DNA from: Escherichia coli 042
GTDB lineage: Bacteria; Pseudomonadota; Gammaproteobacteria; Enterobacterales; Enterobacteriaceae
Direction: 5' to 3' (one strand)
DNA: 64,000 bases
Assembly: GCF_000027125.1 (NCBI RefSeq)
Contig: NC_017626.1
Within the stretch, counting starts at the first letter, position 1. Every line of letters begins with the position of its first letter. The position numbers and the translations under genes were made by a program. Of this stretch, positions 2,806-64,000 are shown in pieces. The notes beneath the pieces were generated by a model, which saw only the letters and a list, made by a program, of their open reading frames with translations, ran no database searches and was not told the DNA's origin.

Positions 2806-3181
2806 AATTTCCTCAGATTAACGTTAGCGCCCGGACCGTCCGAGCGACGCTGCCACGATGGTGGCTGTTTTGAAAATAGCCTGATTAATTTCTGTCTGTC
2901 CAGCGTTTTAGAACATTTTTATCAATGGCTTTAAATGAGGAACTCTGCTTTAAAAACAGGAAATTTATCTATGCTAACAAGAAAATTACCACTCAAATTA
3001 TTAACATTATAATTTCAATAAATTTACCAATCAGAAGTGCATTATCAAGAGATGCATTGCTAATACACCATTTATCTTTCAATCCCCTTTTAAAATTGTG
3101 GTTTTTCCTCAAAAATGGCCTGCTGGTCATCAGCCTTCAGGTTACCTATCATAGAGGTTTAATCCTTATTCAGAGTCACCC

Positions 3182-4879
3182 GTGCACGAAATATTCAACA
3201 TGCTGCTAGCGGTCTTCGATCGGGCAGCGTTAATGCTTATCTGCCTGTTCTTTCTCATCCGTATCCGCCTGTTTCGCGAACTGTTGCACAAGTCGGCGCA
3301 CTCCCCAAAAGAGCTGCTCGCTGTTACCGCCATTTTCTCGCTGTTCGCCCTGTTCAGCACCTGGTCCGGCGTTCCCGTAGAAGGCTCGCTGGTGAACGTA
3401 CGTATTATCGCGGTGATGTCAGGCGGGATTCTGTTTGGCCCGTGGGTAGGCATTATTACCGGCGTGATCGCAGGTATTCACCGTTATTTAATTGATATCG
3501 GCGGCGTGACGGCGATCCCCTGCTTTATCACCAGCATTCTGGCGGGTTGTATATCGGGCTGGATCAACCTGAAAATCCCTAAAGCACAGCGCTGGCGCGT
3601 CGGTATTCTCGGCGGCATGTTATGTGAAACGTTGACCATGATTCTGGTGATTGTCTGGGCACCAACTACCGCATTGGGGATCGATATCGTCTCTAAAATC
3701 GGGATTCCAATGATCCTCGGTAGCGTCTGTATCGGCTTTATTGTGCTGCTGGTGCAAAGCGTTGAGGGCGAAAAAGAGGCCAGCGCCGCGCGGCAGGCCA
3801 AGCTGGCGCTGGATATCGCCAACAAAACGCTACCGCTGTTTCGCCATGTCAATAGCGAGTCATTACGCAAAGTTTGTGAAATTATTCGCGATGATATTCA
3901 CGCCGATGCGGTGGCGATTACTAATACCGATCATGTGCTGGCCTATGTCGGCGTGGGCGAACACAACTATCAGAATGGCGATGACTTCATTAGCCCGACT
4001 ACCCGACAGGCGATGAATTACGGAAAAATCATCATTAAAAACAACGATGAAGCCCACCGCACACCAGAGATTCATTCCATGCTGGTGATCCCATTGTGGG
4101 AGAAAGGCGTTGTGACCGGAACACTGAAAATTTACTACTGCCACGCGCATCAGATCACTTCCTCATTACAGGAAATGGCGGTCGGTCTGTCGCAAATCAT
4201 CTCCACGCAACTGGAGGTTTCGCGTGCCGAGCAGTTACGTGAAATGGCAAATAAGGCAGAGCTTCGCGCTCTGCAAAGCAAAATTAATCCCCATTTTCTG
4301 TTTAACGCTCTGAACGCTATTTCATCGTCAATCCGTCTGAATCCAGATACCGCTCGCCAGCTGATCTTTAATCTGTCGCGTTATCTGCGCTATAACATTG
4401 AATTAAAAGACGATGAGCAAATCGATATCAAAAAAGAGCTGTATCAAATTAAAGACTATATTGCCATTGAGCAGGCCCGCTTTGGCGACAAGCTGACGGT
4501 TATCTATGATATTGATGAAGAGGTGAATTGCTGCATTCCCAGCCTGCTGATCCAGCCGTTGGTGGAGAATGCCATTGTCCACGGTATCCAGCCTTGCAAA
4601 GGTAAAGGCGTTGTCACCATCAGCGTTGCAGAGTGCGGCAATCGGGTACGCATTGCGGTGCGAGATACCGGGCACGGCATCGATCCAAAGGTGATTGAGC
4701 GGGTCGAAGCGAATGAAATGCCGGGCAATAAAATTGGTCTGCTGAATGTCCATCATCGCGTGAAGTTATTGTATGGCGAGGGGCTGCATATCCGCCGCCT
4801 GGAACCAGGAACGGAAATTGCGTTTTACATTCCTAACCAACGCACCCCAGTCGCCTCACAGACTACGTTATTGCTTTGA
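3182..4879 (+). CDS. ypdA: LytS-type sensor histidine kinase (5TM-Lyt, GAF, HisKA/HATPase)
   Basis: 565-aa ORF with GTG start; multi-TM N-terminus and C-terminal kinase motifs; recognised as YpdA. Confidence 0.9.
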
Positions 4880-15838: not shown

Positions 15839-15862
15839 ACGCGTCCGTCAATGGAGCACAAT

Positions 15863-15951
15863 GCCTGATGCGACGCTAGCGCGTCTTATCAGGCCTACAA
15901 ACCGTCTCTTTAACGCGTAGGGCGGATAAGGCGTTTTACGCCGCATCCGCC
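15863..15951. repeat. REP pair (BIME-like) between ypeC and mntH
   Basis: gcctgatgcgacgctagcgcgtcttatcaggcctac and gggcggataaggcgttttacgccgcatccgcc, canonical REP palindromes. Confidence 0.7.
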
Positions 15952-15979
15952 AATGGTGCCAGATGCGACACCAGCTGAA

Positions 15980-37557: not shown

Positions 37558-37655
37558 GCCGGATGCGGCGCAAACGCCTTATCCGGCCTACAAAATCATG
37601 CTAATTCAATATATTGCAGAAATATCGTAGGCCTGATAAGCGTAGCGCATCAGGC
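37558..37655. repeat. REP pair (BIME) between yfeS and cysM
   Basis: gccggatgcggcgcaaacgccttatccggcctac and gtaggcctgataagcgtagcgcatcaggc. Confidence 0.7.
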
Positions 37656-54838: not shown

Positions 54839-56200
54839 TCAGAAGAACAGTGACGGATCGCCCGCCCGTTTGGTCAGGCGACCGTTTGCCATAATGCCCA
54901 TGCTTTCCAGCCAGCGTTCAAACTCCGGTGACGGGCGCAGGTTGAGTAACTGACGCACAGTGGCGGTATCGTGGAAGGCGGTGGTCTGGTAGTTGAGCAT
55001 GATGTCATCACCCAGCGGCATCCCCATGATGTAGTTACAGCCTGCGGTGGCGAGCAGGATCATCAGGTTTTCGTTGAGGTTCTGGTCAGCGTCAGCGTGG
55101 TTGGTGTAGCAGCAGTCACAGCCCATAGAGATGCCGCTCAGCTTACCCATAAAGTGATCTTCTAAGCCCGCACGGATAATCTGGCGGTCGTTGTAGAGAT
55201 ACTCCGGCCCAATAAAGCCGACCACGGTGTTGACGATAAACGGATCGTAATGACGCGCCAGCCCATAGTTACGCGCTTCCATCGTCACCTGGTCAGCGCC
55301 GAAGTTCGCGCCAGCGGACAGCGCAGAACCCTGCCCGGTTTCGAAGTAGAGGCAGTTTTCCCCGGCGATACGGTTGAACTCCGCGCCCACTGCGCGTGCT
55401 TCATCGAGCATCGCCAGCTCCACGCCAAATTCTTTCAGCCCTTTTTCGCTGCCGCAGATACTCTGGAAAATCAGCCCGCCTGGTGCGCCACGACGGATCG
55501 CTTCAATCTGGGTGGTGACGTGCGCCAGCACGCAGCCCTGGGTCGGAATGTTGAATTTGTCGATCACGCCGCAAATGGTGTCCAACACGCGGCTTAAGTT
55601 TTCCACGTCGTCAGTCACCGGGTTAACGCCGATCACCGCATCGCCCACCCCGAAGGAAAGCCCTTCGTAGATTTGCGCGGCGATACTTTGCACGTCGTCA
55701 CGGGTGTCGTTTGGCTGCAAGCGGGCGCTGAAGGTGCCCGGAATACCGATGGTGGTATTGGCCTTTTTGATCACCGGCATTTTCTTCGCGCCGTAGATCA
55801 GGTCCGCGTTGGAGCAAATCTTCGCTACCGCCGCGACCACTTCCGAGGTCAGCCCTTTGCGGGTAAAGGCAATGTCGTCCACGCTGGTTTCATCGCTCAG
55901 CACATACTCACGCAGTTCGCTGATGCTCCAGTTTTTAATCTGGTTGTAGGCCGTTTCGTTAACGTCGTCCTGAATCAGCCGCGTCACGCAGTCATCTTCA
56001 TAGGCAATCACCGGATTATTGCGGATGTCCGCTACGGTCATTTCCGACAACACCTGCTTTGCCGCCACGCGCTCTTGTGAGCTTGCCGCTGCAACGCCCG
56101 CCAGCACATCCCCCGAACGCAGTTCGTTGGCTTTAGCCAGCACCTCTTTTACATCCTTAAACTGATATACATTGCCGAACAATGTGGTCTTTAGTTTCAT
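54839..56200 (-). CDS. eutB: ethanolamine ammonia-lyase large subunit
   Basis: 453-aa ORF recognised as EutB. Confidence 0.95.
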   Translation of the reverse strand: MKLKTTLFGNVYQFKDVKEVLAKANELRSGDVLAGVAAASSQERVAAKQVLSEMTVADIRNNPVIAYEDDCVTRLIQDDVNETAYNQIKNWSISELREYVLSDETSVDDIAFTRKGLTSEVVAAVAKICSNADLIYGAKKMPVIKKANTTIGIPGTFSARLQPNDTRDDVQSIAAQIYEGLSFGVGDAVIGVNPVTDDVENLSRVLDTICGVIDKFNIPTQGCVLAHVTTQIEAIRRGAPGGLIFQSICGSEKGLKEFGVELAMLDEARAVGAEFNRIAGENCLYFETGQGSALSAGANFGADQVTMEARNYGLARHYDPFIVNTVVGFIGPEYLYNDRQIIRAGLEDHFMGKLSGISMGCDCCYTNHADADQNLNENLMILLATAGCNYIMGMPLGDDIMLNYQTTAFHDTATVRQLLNLRPSPEFERWLESMGIMANGRLTKRAGDPSLFF

Positions 56201-56211
56201 AAGTCGTTCCC

Positions 56212-57615
56212 TCAGGAAGGAAATGCGAGTGATTTCACCGTCACCGGCACAACCGATCCGCCAAAAAGAGGCGTACCAATGTCGATATAGTCCCCCGCGC
56301 GGACAATCACTTCGTCAATGACTGCCAACGGGAGTTGCTGTAGCTGTGGGCGCAACAACATGCCCAGAGCTTTACCAAAGTCCTGCCCGGCCACCACCAG
56401 CAGGGGATGCGGATTCGGAAAACGCGCGACGAAATCGACCAGCGCGTTGATGACCGTCAGTACCGCGGCGTAACGCACAGGCAGCGAGGCGGGAAGCGCC
56501 AGCACGTACGCGTCAGTTTTGGGGCAAAGATCCAGCTGAATCAGCGCCTGTTGCCAGGCACTCACCAGATCCGTTTCATCAATTGGGATCGCCACCGGCA
56601 AATTGCGCAGCGGCAGTTGTACGCCCTCCAGCCAGATTGTGCTGCCAGAGAGCGAAAGGGTATGTGCACCCGCGCCAATCACCGTGGCACGTACGGTTTG
56701 CGCTGGAAACTGCACGTTCATCTCACGCAGGCGCGGATGGTCATGCAGCGCCGTTGCCAGAAGCGGGCCGATATCGGCAAAACAGAACGGATCGGCGGGC
56801 TGGTGGCGATAACATTCGCCCACGCCGCCAGAAAGCGTAATGATTTCGGGCGTAACACCTGCGGGCAGCAAACCGGTTTGCATCAATGCCTGCGCGAGCG
56901 GCGAGAGCGTTCCGTCGATCACTTCGACAATCAGCTCTGCCATCCGGCGGGTAACCTGCACCAGCTGCGCGCCGGTCAGCGAACGGGCGTCAGTGCCAGC
57001 ACCGAAGCACTCATCCACAATCATCTGCCCCGGTTTATGAGCGTAAACCACGCGCCCCTGGCTGTCGGTTTCCAGCAGGCGACCGCCGACGTTGAGGCAG
57101 GCGGTGCCGCTGATTTTTCCGGCATCGAACAGGGCGTAGTTCGCGGTGCCACCGCCGATATCGATATTCAGTACCCGACACAACCGTTGTTCAGAAAGGG
57201 TTTGCGCCCCGGCACCGTGACCGGCGATCACGGATTCGAGATGCGGCCCGGCGCTGGCGACGACAAAATCGCCCAGCGATTGGGAGAGCGTCATCACCGC
57301 CGGGCGAGCATTGCGGGTTTTCGCGCTTTCACCGGTGATGATGATGGCACCAGAATCAACGCTTTCCGGCGCAATGCCCGCAGCCTGGTATTGCTCGAGG
57401 ATTAAGGTTTTCAGTTCCGCTTCTTTTAAACCACCCTGTTTATCGACAGGGGTAAAGAACACCGGGCTTTGCCAGCTAATTTCGCGTTTGATGAATTCGT
57501 AGCGCGGCACCTGCGACACCGCCGCACGGTTAACCAGCTCCAGGTGGGAGAAGATCACCTGGGTGGTGGTGGTGCCGATATCGATACCGACGCTCAGTAG
57601 CTGGCGAGTGTTCAC
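56212..57615 (-). CDS. eutA: ethanolamine ammonia-lyase reactivating factor
   Basis: 467-aa ORF recognised as EutA; ends 11 nt upstream of eutB start. Confidence 0.95.
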   Translation of the reverse strand: MNTRQLLSVGIDIGTTTTQVIFSHLELVNRAAVSQVPRYEFIKREISWQSPVFFTPVDKQGGLKEAELKTLILEQYQAAGIAPESVDSGAIIITGESAKTRNARPAVMTLSQSLGDFVVASAGPHLESVIAGHGAGAQTLSEQRLCRVLNIDIGGGTANYALFDAGKISGTACLNVGGRLLETDSQGRVVYAHKPGQMIVDECFGAGTDARSLTGAQLVQVTRRMAELIVEVIDGTLSPLAQALMQTGLLPAGVTPEIITLSGGVGECYRHQPADPFCFADIGPLLATALHDHPRLREMNVQFPAQTVRATVIGAGAHTLSLSGSTIWLEGVQLPLRNLPVAIPIDETDLVSAWQQALIQLDLCPKTDAYVLALPASLPVRYAAVLTVINALVDFVARFPNPHPLLVVAGQDFGKALGMLLRPQLQQLPLAVIDEVIVRAGDYIDIGTPLFGGSVVPVTVKSLAFPS

Positions 57616-58838: not shown

Positions 58839-58868
58839 CGCCTTTACTCCCTGTTAGTTGTTATTTAT

Positions 58869-59351
<483 letters not shown>

Positions 59352-59353
59352 AT

Positions 59354-61377: not shown

Positions 61378-62781
61378 TTAAACAATGCGAAACGCATCAA
61401 CTAATACACAGCGACGCAGACGGACAAACGTACGCGCGCTGGTTACCCCTTCACCGGTTGGCGTGGTGATGGTCATGGTGGTCCAGCCTTCCCCGCCCAG
61501 CCCCAGCCCGGCAATGCACGGTCCGTTCTTAACGAAAATGCTGGTATCAATGGCGTTCGCCATCTGGTTCATGTTCTCGATGTTGCGCGAGTGCATTGCC
61601 GCCGTGTGATGGCAACCGCCTTCCAGTTTCACCGCCAGCGCAATGGCATCCGCCACGTTGGCGACGCGCACGACGGGCAGCACCGGCATCATCAGTTCGG
61701 TCACGGCAAACGGATGTTCTGCAGTGGTTTCCACAAACAGCAAACGCGTTTCTTGCGGCACGTTCAGGCCGATTGCCGCCGCGATTTTCGCCGCATCGCG
61801 ACCTACCCAGTCACGGCTGACGGTGCCTTTTCCGCGCTCGTCGATATTTTTCAGCAACACCGGTTGCAGCTGCTGCGCCTGTTCTGCGGTCAGTTTCACC
61901 GCGTGCTGGCCTTCCATCAGACGCATCAGTTCATCGGCTACGCTATCAACAACAATCAGTACCTTTTCGTCGGCACAAATGATGTTGTTATCGAAAGAAG
62001 CGCCTTTGACGATGGACTGAGCGGCACGGGCGAGGTCGGCGGTTTCATCCACCACTACCGGCGGGTTGCCAGCGCCTGCGGCAATCAGACGTTTATTGGT
62101 GTGTTTACGCGCCGCTTCTACTACCGCTTCGCCGCCCGTCACCACCAAAAGGCCGATGCCCGGAAACTTGAATAAGCGTTGCGCGGTTTCGATATCCGGA
62201 TTTGCCACAGTAACCAGTAAGTTTTCCGGCCCGCCTGCGGCAACAATCGCCTGGTTGAGCAGCGTGATCGCCCGCTGGGAGACTTTTTTCGCCGCCGGAT
62301 GCGGGGCAAAAATGACGCTGTTGCCCGCGGCAATCAGGCTGATGGCGTTGTTAATTACGGTTGCCGCCGGGTTAGTGGAAGGCGTCACCGAAGCCACCAC
62401 GCCCCAGGGCGCGTTTTCAATTAAAGTCAGGCCGTTGTCGCCGGTCAGCACCTGTGGTGAGAGGCACTCAACGCCTGGTGTGCCGCACGCCTGAGCGACG
62501 TTTTTGGCAAATTTATCTTCGACGCGGCCCATGCCGGTTTCACTGACGGCAAGTTCCGCTAAATCTCTGGCGTGTTTTTCGCCTGCCTCACGAATGGCAG
62601 CAATGGCTAACTGGCGCATTGCCACGCTTTTTAACCCTTGCTGGGCAATTTTGGCTGCCGCAACGGCGTCATCCAGGGACGCGAAAACGCCCATCTCATG
62701 AACGGCGGCGGGCGGCGTATCACTGCTTTGCATTTTCAGCAGTACCGCTTTCACCACCTGTTCAATATCCTGTTGATTCAT
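61378..62781 (-). CDS. eutE: CoA-acylating acetaldehyde dehydrogenase
   Basis: 467-aa ORF recognised as EutE. Confidence 0.95.
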   Translation of the reverse strand: MNQQDIEQVVKAVLLKMQSSDTPPAAVHEMGVFASLDDAVAAAKIAQQGLKSVAMRQLAIAAIREAGEKHARDLAELAVSETGMGRVEDKFAKNVAQACGTPGVECLSPQVLTGDNGLTLIENAPWGVVASVTPSTNPAATVINNAISLIAAGNSVIFAPHPAAKKVSQRAITLLNQAIVAAGGPENLLVTVANPDIETAQRLFKFPGIGLLVVTGGEAVVEAARKHTNKRLIAAGAGNPPVVVDETADLARAAQSIVKGASFDNNIICADEKVLIVVDSVADELMRLMEGQHAVKLTAEQAQQLQPVLLKNIDERGKGTVSRDWVGRDAAKIAAAIGLNVPQETRLLFVETTAEHPFAVTELMMPVLPVVRVANVADAIALAVKLEGGCHHTAAMHSRNIENMNQMANAIDTSIFVKNGPCIAGLGLGGEGWTTMTITTPTGEGVTSARTFVRLRRCVLVDAFRIV

Positions 62782-62792
62782 GATGTTCTGCC

Positions 62793-63080
62793 TTATTTGT
62801 GGAAAATTACCTGACCGCCAGACACCACCTCATCGACGATGCCAATCACGCACAGATCGACCGGTGACGTTTCGCTTTTATGCGCCTGGCGGGCGGAACT
62901 GCCACTCACCAGCAACACCCACTCCCCGGTTCCCGCGCCAATATTGTCGATTGCGACGGCGCATTGCCCGTCAGGATTACCTTGTGGATCAATCATTTCC
63001 ACCATCAGCAATTTGTCATGCGCCAGTCCGTGATGGCGTACGGTACAAACAATTTGTCCAGTGACGACTGCCAGTTTCAT
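62793..63080 (-). CDS. eutN: microcompartment vertex protein (EutN/CcmL family)
   Basis: 95-aa ORF MKLAVVTGQIVCTVRH... Confidence 0.93.
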   Translation of the reverse strand: MKLAVVTGQIVCTVRHHGLAHDKLLMVEMIDPQGNPDGQCAVAIDNIGAGTGEWVLLVSGSSARQAHKSETSPVDLCVIGIVDEVVSGGQVIFHK

Positions 63081-63186
63081 ACCCGCCTCCGTGGCGTATT
63101 TCAGGTAAAAGCTCCCCCTACCCTCCGCGGAAGGTAAACTGAAAAATGAGAGAGCGTGACGCCCGAATCGACGTCACACAGGGTGA

Positions 63187-63480
63187 TTACAGGTTGCTGC
63201 TATCGCCTTTCAGGCCGATCGGGAAGACTTCTTCCAGGTCGCCGTGCGGACGCGGGATAACGTGTACAGATACCAGCTCGCCGATACGCTGTGCCGCTGC
63301 AGCACCTGCGTCGGTCGCGGCTTTACAGGCTGCAACATCACCACGAACCATGGCAGTACACAGGCCGCCGCCAATCTGCTTAACACCAACCAGCTTGACG
63401 CGCGCAGCTTTCACCATCGCGTCAGAAGCCTCAATCAGTGCAACCAGGCCCCGGGTTTCGATCATTCCTAATGCTTCCAT
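63187..63480 (-). CDS. eutM: major microcompartment shell protein EutM (BMC domain)
   Basis: ORF 63187..63522 trimmed to ATG 63480 ([18 protein letters not shown]...) with AGAGGA SD; 97 aa. Confidence 0.93.
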
Positions 63481-63518
63481 TGTGCTTTCCTCTTTATCAG
63501 GGTCCAGAACGGGACCGT

Positions 63519-64000
63519 TCATTCAACCAGTGTTTGTAAACTGCTTTCGCGGTTCACTTCTGTCTGACGCGGCACAGCTGCCACCAGCGCCAGTTCGATA
63601 ATTTCCTGCACGCTACAACCACGAGAGAGATCGTGCATCGGCGCGGCAAGTCCTTGTATCAATGGCCCGACGGCACGATATCCGCCGAGTCGTTGTGCGA
63701 TTTTGTAGCCAATATTTCCGGCTTCCAGCGACGGAAAAACCATCACATTGGCCTTGCCTTGTAGCGGGCTGGCAGGCGCTTTTTGCGCCGCCACTTCCGG
63801 CACGAAGGCGGCGTCAAACTGCAACTCGCCATCGACTACCAACTGCGGCGCGCGCTCACGGACGATTTCTGTCGCCTGCTGGACATTGGCAACGCAGGGG
63901 TGACGGGCGCTGCCGTTACTGGAAAACGACAACATCGCCACGCGCGGCTCTTCTCCGGTGATGGCGCGCCAGGTTTCGGCGCTGGCAAGCGCGATATCCG
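63519..64000 (-). CDS. eutD: phosphotransacetylase, 3-prime portion only (gene continues past the window edge)
   Basis: open frame from stop at 63519 to the window edge; C-terminal Pta-like sequence ([24 protein letters not shown]...). Confidence 0.85.

Follow-up and report, generated by a model that had tools for sequence, protein, structure and literature searches.

Within a 64,000-nucleotide (nt) stretch of Escherichia coli 042 (contig NC_017626.1; hereafter the window), the eut operon genes eutM and eutN, which encode an abundant and a rare shell protein of the ethanolamine microcompartment, are separated by a spacer of exactly 106 nt (63081-63186, minus strand). This spacer is a real, conserved RNA structure, formed by the sense strand. 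Our preferred interpretation, held with slightly more doubt than confidence, is that it serves as an intercistronic boundary, which gives the eutM message a nuclease-resistant 3′ end and keeps ribosomes that have translated eutM from re-initiating at eutN. A first-pass annotation, made from the letters alone, had proposed that an mRNA structure at this place tunes eutN translation; a conserved structure does part the abundant from the rare shell protein, but occlusion of the eutN ribosome-binding site was not borne out.

The spacer is a conserved sense-strand RNA structure

The eut operon lies on the minus strand of the window. Its sixth gene of 17, eutM (63187-63480), was identified from the list of open reading frames (ORFs) and their translations as encoding a BMC-domain major shell protein of 97 amino acids, and is annotated in more than 5,400 E. 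coli genomes and in K-12. The eutM stop codon, TAA, occupies 63187-63189, and eutN (62793-63080, minus strand), which by the same list and translation encodes a pentameric vertex protein of 95 amino acids, begins with an ATG at 63078-63080. The gap is therefore as first described, and the region 62793-63480 is 100% identical in strain Ecol_316. It had also been stated that most other eut junctions either overlap or leave at most 20 nt. Of the 11 junctions in the window 8 conform to this, but the eutM-eutN gap is not the largest; there are wide gaps between eutD and eutM (38 nt), eutK and eutR (about 45 nt) and eutG and eutH (515 nt), the last consisting of tandem repetitive extragenic palindromic (REP) and bacterial interspersed mosaic element (BIME) sequences.

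Read as sense RNA, the spacer opens with UCACCCU, followed by hairpin H1 (GUGUGACGUC-GAUUCG-GGCGUCACGC), UCUCUC and AUUUUUCAGUU; it continues with hairpin H2 (UACCUUC-CGCG-GAGGGUA), GGGGGAGC, UUUUACCUGAAAUA, a small hairpin CGCC-ACGGA-GGCG, GGU and the AUG of eutN. All of these parts are on the minus strand. H1 (63154-63179) begins 8 nt past the eutM stop and folds into a GC-rich stem of 10 base pairs (bp) with a 6-nt loop and an 8-bp core at 63156-63177. Its arms contain the inverted repeat noticed in the first-pass annotation, gtgacg at 63156-63161 and cgtcac at 63172-63177 in plus-strand coordinates, which the sense RNA extends to the full 10 bp. H2 (63119-63136) is the palindrome described there as centred on CCGCGG (63125-63130); as DNA it is imperfect, and the mismatch is a U.G pair in the sense RNA. 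A third helix, H3, had been missed. Its 5′ arm GCUCUCUC (63148-63155), a pyrimidine tract found by consensus folding (alifold) and pair counts, and its 3′ arm GGGGGAGC (63111-63118), found from the fold and pair counts, enclose H2 and abut H1, and the first two bases of the 5′ arm could alternatively extend H1. The U-rich asymmetric internal loop AUUUUUCAGUU (63137-63147) separates H3 from H2, and a U-run is retained at this place in all full-length versions of the spacer. Downstream of H3 lies the invariant single-stranded UUUUACCUGAAAUA (63097-63110), unpaired in all folds. The small hairpin that follows (63084-63096) carries the Shine-Dalgarno (SD) sequence of eutN, GGAGG at 63086-63090, which stands 5 nt ahead of the AUG as had been reported. 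Two bases, at 63139 and 63147, set this strain apart from the typical E. coli spacer (G for U, A for C); both fall in the unpaired internal loop. Spacer identity to this allele is about 97% in most E. coli genomes.

The first-pass annotation had suggested RNA folding and covariation across enterobacterial eut operons as checks. Folding of the sense strand gave a stable structure with a minimum free energy (MFE) of -41.4 kcal/mol (z = -2.47; 3 of 200 shuffled sequences folded equally well), to which H1 contributes about -16 and H3/H2 about -18 kcal/mol. The antisense strand yielded only -29.5 kcal/mol (z = -0.94), because several of the pairs are G.U and turn into A.C mismatches on the other strand, and this asymmetry argues for a structure of the eut mRNA rather than a palindrome in the DNA. 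The comparative evidence, which follows, is much stronger than this single-sequence statistic. Two further ideas about the spacer did not survive inspection. Pseudoknot pairing of the U-rich internal loop with the GAAA in the conserved tail is unsupported by compensatory changes; five U-A or C-G pairs are kept in the close set of sequences (six in the allele of this strain only), and the duplex energies of -0.2 to -5.6 kcal/mol are mostly no better than with shuffled tails. The sole small ORF in the sense direction, a GUG plus 19 codons lacking an SD, was rejected because insertions and deletions in the H1 loop are not multiples of three and break the frame between species.

For the comparison, a scan for EutN in one genome per species gave 48 loci, from which 42 eutM-eutN spacers were extracted, and 8 further loci were reached through EutN homologues in a protein collection; the 50 junctions comprise 47 from enterobacteria and 3 from other Proteobacteria. 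Clearly homologous spacers (alignment A1) are present in Escherichia, the Citrobacter freundii complex, a second Citrobacter group, Klebsiella spallanzanii and Phytobacter. Comparison of E. coli with the C. freundii group showed 87-89% identity over the 3′-terminal 75 nt of the spacer, against 53-59% at four-fold synonymous sites in the eutM, eutN and eutE genes; the corresponding values were 74-79% and 56-61% when Citrobacter R56 and K. spallanzanii were compared. The consensus fold contains four helices. In A1, with 19 close sequences, 98.9% of the cells are paired and there are 3 compensatory pairs, and in 25 model-aligned sequences, which add Buttiauxella and Entomohabitans, the values are 97.4% and 9. 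The latter count is more fairly set against a control in which partners were slid by 1-3 columns, which gave 2-4 compensatory pairs, since a model alignment leans towards structure. Thus the helices are 97-99% paired and compensatory changes are present. H3 is paired in 97.8% of cells with one compensatory pair in the close set, H2 has two (A-U to G-C and C-G to U-A), and the 4-bp SD hairpin is 100% paired and shows one-sided changes only. A further alignment, A4, had compensatory counts inflated by reverse-strand palindromic hits and is not used as evidence.

The core of H1, GUGACG/CGUCAC, is unchanged in Escherichia, Citrobacter, Phytobacter, Buttiauxella and Entomohabitans, around a loop of 5 to 22 nt. 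In deeper lineages it changes with compensation, as seen in Pluralibacter gergoviae (GCGUGGCG/CGCCACGC), Yokenella (AUGACG/CGUCAU) and locus L056; a metagenomic relative has GCGUGGUGUUA/UAAUACCACGC, and the stem can be followed through the series GUGACG, GUGGCG, GUGGUG. We had considered H1 as a sequence-specific protein site, given a stem that is invariant from Escherichia to Buttiauxella, and the covarying stems of these deeper lineages overturned this notion. When folded alone, the spacers of Pluralibacter, L055, L056 and Entomohabitans adopt the same layout, H1 followed by H3 enclosing H2, with different stem sequences, and in Pluralibacter, L055 and L056 H2 is retained with a wholly different stem, for example GCCGCC-GCCCU-GGCGGC. 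The single-stranded tract forms invariant columns of the alignment; Pluralibacter has UUUUACCUGAAAU, and the tract is degenerate in L055 and L056.

A covariance model of the element (R1) matched the window once, at the spacer itself (121.7 bits). Of 5,426 complete E. coli genomes, 5,407 have one copy of the spacer, which is unannotated in them. K-12 carries the same 106 nt at 2572051-2572156, also unannotated. Rfam returned no relevant match for window positions 62000-64000 at E <= 10 or for four homologous loci at E <= 1, and no account of the element was found in the searchable literature. We also asked whether the spacer is itself a dispersed repeat or REP. A BLAST search with the REP units of the window found 13 places, 10 of them in the eutG-eutH array and none in 63081-63186, and with one copy per genome and no REP similarity this idea was rejected.

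Unrelated hairpins occupy the same slot in other eut operons

REP and BIME sequences form a dispersed, multi-copy family of imperfect palindromes of about 35 nt, with the consensus …GCCGGATG…TTATCCGGCCTAC. The eutM-eutN slot is filled by one or two REP elements in K. pneumoniae and the K. oxytoca group, in Salmonella enterica, in C. koseri, C. amalonaticus and C. sedlakii, and in Pseudocitrobacter and a metagenome-assembled genome of Pluralibacter. These REP-type spacers share with the E. coli type (type A) only the last 14 nt or so (ACGGAGGCGGGU), and the ACGGAGGCGGGU AUG context is present in most REP-type species. Ten of them contain exact matches of 14-19 nt to REP units of the eutG-eutH array in the window. 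Other junctions are different again: in Yokenella and L058 the spacers are 50-52 nt long and contain H1 alone, the ESL0689 junction has an unrelated 12-bp hairpin, and in Pseudomonas, Rhodocyclaceae and Pseudothauera the spacers are 131-211 nt long, GC-rich and structured. Each of the 42 junctions in the first set has a hairpin (-9 to -33 kcal/mol) beginning 1-19 nt past the eutM stop, and all 8 later loci likewise have a stable hairpin soon after it (50 of 50 in total). What the junctions have in common is therefore a stable hairpin immediately 3′ of eutM and at least 50 nt before eutN. The REP elements of other eut operons resemble the E. coli structure in occupying the identical slot, with similar hairpin stability and a few nt after the eutM stop; the E. 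coli spacer differs from them in its single copy, in its lack of REP similarity, and in possessing a second, compound stem-loop and a conserved single-stranded tract. This substitution of unrelated hairpins is a natural experiment, and suggests that a hairpin right after eutM is what matters.

Among loci L001-L045 the C-terminus of EutM tracks the spacer type, most type-A proteins having 97 amino acids (ending …GDSSNL or …GDSNDM) and most REP-type proteins 96 (ending …GDSNI). The replaced segment may reach into the last codons of eutM, or recombination may have exchanged two forms that are old alleles. Type A is the form in K. spallanzanii, and its sister species are REP-type. In E. coli strain 90-1 (L050, NZ_CP050047.1), an IS911 at 3080-4358 is inserted after spacer base 79, inside the UUUUACC tract, and parts the hairpin module from the eutN ribosome-binding site.

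Expression across the spacer and its interpretation

Microcompartments require their shell proteins in fixed and very unequal amounts, thousands of hexamer subunits against about 60 vertex subunits, and either too much or too little vertex protein leads to malformed shells. Deletion of eutN results in elongated structures (PMC12487888). In E. coli K-12 with ethanolamine and B12, the relative intensity-based absolute quantification (iBAQ) values are 96 for EutM, 1 for EutN, 27 for EutE, 10 for EutD, 37 for EutB and 39 for EutL (PMC11334477). RNA-seq of strain LF82 in minimal medium and in bile salts gave, respectively, 13 and 83 reads per kilobase per million (RPKM) for eutT, 108 and 357 for eutD, 55 and 177 for eutM, 5 and 62 for eutN, 14 and 149 for eutE, 13 and 147 for eutJ, and 106 and 514 for eutH (PMC6379400). 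In this published table the message steps down exactly at the spacer, 11-fold from eutM to eutN in minimal medium (uninduced) and 2.9-fold in bile (induced), and eutN is the least abundant eut message. A strong terminator is ruled out, since there is no global depression of the genes further downstream. There is also a jump from eutT (13) to eutD (108) in the uninduced cells, hinting at an internal promoter or at a stable eutD-eutM fragment.

We also examined the eutN initiation region. The predicted cost of opening the eutN start is 14.6 kcal/mol for type-A and 12.4 for REP-type loci, compared with 6.5-7.0 kcal/mol for the eutM and eutE starts, and in all 32 enterobacterial loci considered the eutN start is predicted to be about twice as costly to open as those of eutM and eutE. 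When the flanks were shuffled in E. coli the cost was unchanged or higher (16.2 +/- 2.9 kcal/mol, against 14.6 for the native sequence), and therefore it belongs to the G-rich initiation region itself and not to the spacer hairpins. None of the self-contained helices H1, H2 and H3 pairs with the SD; if anything, they keep the anti-SD-like pyrimidine tracts of the spacer away from it. The only helix that touches the SD is the 4-bp stem, which involves two SD bases and shows no compensatory changes. No SD-sequestering helix is conserved across 31 species, the consensus fold reaching only -7.4 kcal/mol with one compensatory pair. A pairing of the SD with eutN codons 13-20, present in the E. coli MFE fold, was rejected, being neither conserved nor better than in shuffled context.

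In operons with differential mRNA decay, a protective structure is located at the 3′ edge of a stabilized, heavily translated gene with an unstable, poorly translated neighbor, and REP and other 3′ hairpins stabilize upstream operon segments, as in malE-malF and papA (PMC5927463). The eutM-eutN spacer resembles the stabilizer hairpins of malE-malF, papB-papA and puf, the class known as selective RNA processing and stabilization, in that a stem-loop comes right after the gene for the product made in excess, a poorly translated gene for a rarer product comes next, an AU-rich tract with an RNase E motif adjoins the structure, the mRNA steps down, and the arrangement is conserved between species. 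The motif in question is RN↓WUU, recognized by RNase E in unstructured RNA (PMC5927463), and it is fitted by the 5′ edge of UUUUACCUGAAAUA, G-C↓U-U-U, at the foot of H3. The eut case differs from this class in that eutM is the sixth gene rather than the first, that genes from eutE onward are still well expressed, and that the spacer is a unique three-helix module with conserved unpaired bases instead of a REP or a simple hairpin; it is, moreover, known here from sequence and published tables.

From these data we infer exonuclease blocking, RNase E cleavage, uncoupling of translation and a causal role for the spacer in the following form. H1 and the H3/H2 stem-loop, which make up the 5′ three-quarters of the spacer (about 70 nt), would constitute a compact double-hairpin module at the 3′ boundary of an eutM-containing mRNA. 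An endonuclease, probably RNase E, would cut either in the conserved single-stranded UUUUACC... tract or in poorly translated eutN, and the hairpins, which may double as a weak terminator, would stop 3′-to-5′ exonucleases, so that the eutM message would outlast that of eutN. In addition, the 106-nt structured gap would keep ribosomes that finish heavily translated eutM from re-initiating at eutN, which would start independently from its G-rich, poorly accessible initiation region. In combination these effects could allow a ratio of EutM to EutN of about 100:1 from a single transcript, and REP elements in the same slot would do the same job in other enterobacteria. The location of the hairpins at the eutM end of the spacer, together with their replacement by REP elements, points to the eutM 3′ end and to uncoupling rather than to SD occlusion. 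A stable conserved structure is indeed found at the 3′ edge of the more abundant segment, and the mRNA steps down there. The downstream gene has a protein value of 1, against 96 for EutM, and a predicted opening cost of 14.6, against 7 kcal/mol, although these are indirect measures of translation density. A costly eutN start would agree with the observation that poor translation and instability go together in the same gene (PMC5927463).

Several considerations weigh against this interpretation. The mRNA drop is about 3-fold under induction, far below the protein ratio of about 100-fold, and therefore the scarcity of EutN must be due mostly to translation or protein stability, with the hairpins explaining only a part. 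The ratio of eutM to eutE mRNA is 3.9 in one condition and 1.2 in the other, which a fixed stabilizer does not simply predict. A generic exonuclease block fails to explain the strong conservation of primary sequence, including that of unpaired UUUUACCUGAAAU. In work on REP elements, hairpins within 15 nt of a stop codon are reported to lower the expression of the upstream gene, an effect that would run in the opposite direction. No sense-strand 3′ end at the spacer is listed in the K-12 Term-seq tables, which come from cells where eut was uninduced. Finally, the RNA-seq and proteomic values are single tabulated numbers from different strains and conditions.

Another reading, which we consider unlikely, is that H1 and the U- and pyrimidine-rich tract behind it form a leaky intrinsic terminator, or attenuator, that ends a part of the transcripts after eutM and lowers transcription downstream. 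H1 does resemble one in its GC-rich stem of 8-10 bp, short loop and following U-containing tract. A consensus scan scored it as terminator-like in E. coli (10 pairs, tail TCTCTCATTT), with 4 sites found against 1.3 expected, and flagged H1 of Buttiauxella as well (tail TTTCTTTAAC); right after H1, Pluralibacter has CGUUUUUAAG and L056 has GUUUUA. Measured against terminator criteria, the stem has 10 bp, 6 of them GC, and the tail is UCUCUCAUUUUU in E. coli and CCUCUCUCCU in Citrobacter, with better tails in Buttiauxella and Pluralibacter. The uninduced LF82 data agree with attenuation insofar as the message, having fallen 11-fold from eutM to eutN, is still low through eutE and eutJ. However, the U-tract is interrupted in E. 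coli (UCUCUCAUUU) and in Citrobacter (CCUCUCUCCU), in both of which it is paired as the 5′ arm of H3 and would compete with termination, and Yokenella has no U-run at all. Genes beyond the spacer are expressed comparably to or above those upstream: EutE (27), EutB (37) and EutL (39) exceed EutD (10), and the induced eutE message (149) is near that of eutM (177), so that net termination must be small. In addition, eutR, which encodes the activator, is at the end of the operon and needs read-through, and intrinsic termination is not a property of the REP elements found in place of the motif. A slightly smaller probability attaches to the view that the spacer is a translational operator for eutN, in which structure or a trans-acting factor hides the SD and holds EutN at about 1% of EutM; candidate factors are CsrA, through the GGA in H2 and the ACGGA loop, and Hfq acting together with a small RNA at the AU-rich tract. 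Like known SD/CsrA operators, the spacer has a GGA loop at the SD (ACGGA, 63088-63092), within a small conserved hairpin, a second GGA about 38 nt upstream at the edge of the H2 loop and stem (63124-63126), and a low protein output despite a strong SD. The sequence CACGGAGG fits the CsrA core motif. The protein ratio of 96:1 greatly exceeds the mRNA ratio of about 3:1, EutN is 27-fold below the product of the next gene, EutE, despite a consensus GGAGG at optimal spacing, the eutN start is predicted to be hard to open, and the strong conservation of unpaired bases suggests a specific partner. CsrA also binds the eut leader at eutS in Salmonella (PMC10433801). Unlike those operators, however, the spacer lacks a conserved SD-sequestering helix, as the 31-species fold and the one-sided changes in the SD stem indicate, and its predicted inaccessibility resides in the G-rich start region itself, as judged from the flank shuffling. 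H1-H3 are self-contained, lie 30-100 nt upstream and are fully replaceable by REP elements, and a GGA inside GGAGG is trivial for any SD.

Less probable again is that the spacer acts as a cis-regulatory RNA motif dedicated to the eut operons of enterobacteria, in which the conserved unpaired bases (UUUUACCUGAAAU, the U-rich loop and the GGA loops) would be recognized by a particular partner; candidates are CsrA, Hfq together with a small RNA, and Eut proteins, EutK for instance. No target is known for the C-terminal nucleic-acid-binding domain of EutK. If this were true, the stoichiometry of EutM and EutN would be under active control, with feedback from shell assembly as one example, and not hard-wired. 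We attach very little weight to the last alternative, in which the spacer is a tolerated gap that has gathered palindromes and mobile repeats with no dedicated function, or is a protein site acting at the level of DNA. REP elements, which spread into permissive intergenic DNA, do fill the slot in many genera, one E. coli strain has IS911 in the spacer, and spacer length ranges from 50 to 211 nt across the junctions. This reading is largely refuted by conservation and covariation: the identity of the spacer exceeds that of synonymous sites, compensatory changes uphold three helices, and the G.U-dependent structure forms on the sense strand only. Furthermore, the distance of 5-22 nt between the H1 arms excludes a fixed dimeric DNA site, neither strand of the spacer contains a promoter-like site, and a hairpin sits beside the eutM stop in every junction.

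Returning to the intercistronic boundary, the element is a genuine, so far uncatalogued conserved RNA motif with a probably ordinary mechanism, of a kind known since malEFG and pap, and its conceptual novelty is limited accordingly. It is a concrete and testable candidate for part of the 100:1 output from adjacent eut genes. Its relevance is mainly to the study and engineering of microcompartment stoichiometry, with a practical use in rebuilding Eut shells in E. coli from re-assembled genes, where such spacers are usually discarded.

Antisense transcription and neighboring junctions

The sole relevant entry in the supplements of three E. coli 3′-end studies is an antisense 3′ end within eutM. 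It is a low-count Term-seq end from K-12 (2572217, plus strand), antisense to the 3′ part of eutM at about window position 63247 (plus strand), and an antisense transcript must therefore cross the spacer region under non-inducing conditions. No promoter-like site from which it might start was found on the plus strand of 62600-63600. A scan of the spacer found no sigma-70-like promoter on either strand; by eye, the hexamers TTTACC and TGAAAT are partnerless.

Upstream of eutM, the eutD-eutM gap (63481-63518, minus strand) contains a small hairpin, GGUCC-CGUUCU-GGACC, just ahead of the eutM ribosome-binding site (AAGAGGAAAGCACAAUG), which could be the 5′ boundary of a stabilized eutM segment. 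The genes eutA and eutB are neighbors with an 11-nt gap (56200-56212), and the strain is therefore one without the CPZ-55 prophage that splits the operon there in K-12 (L049). The eutG-eutH array (58839-59353, minus strand) is built of five BIME-like units that recur in tandem every 100 nt, each made of two different REP types in opposite orientation; in K-12 this gap is only 216 nt. The gene just downstream of the array, eutH, has the top RPKM of the operon in LF82 (106/514), and the array may be a second mRNA boundary or a promoter-bearing region. REP copies of both types in the array are also present in the window at 15862-15952 and 37560-37591.

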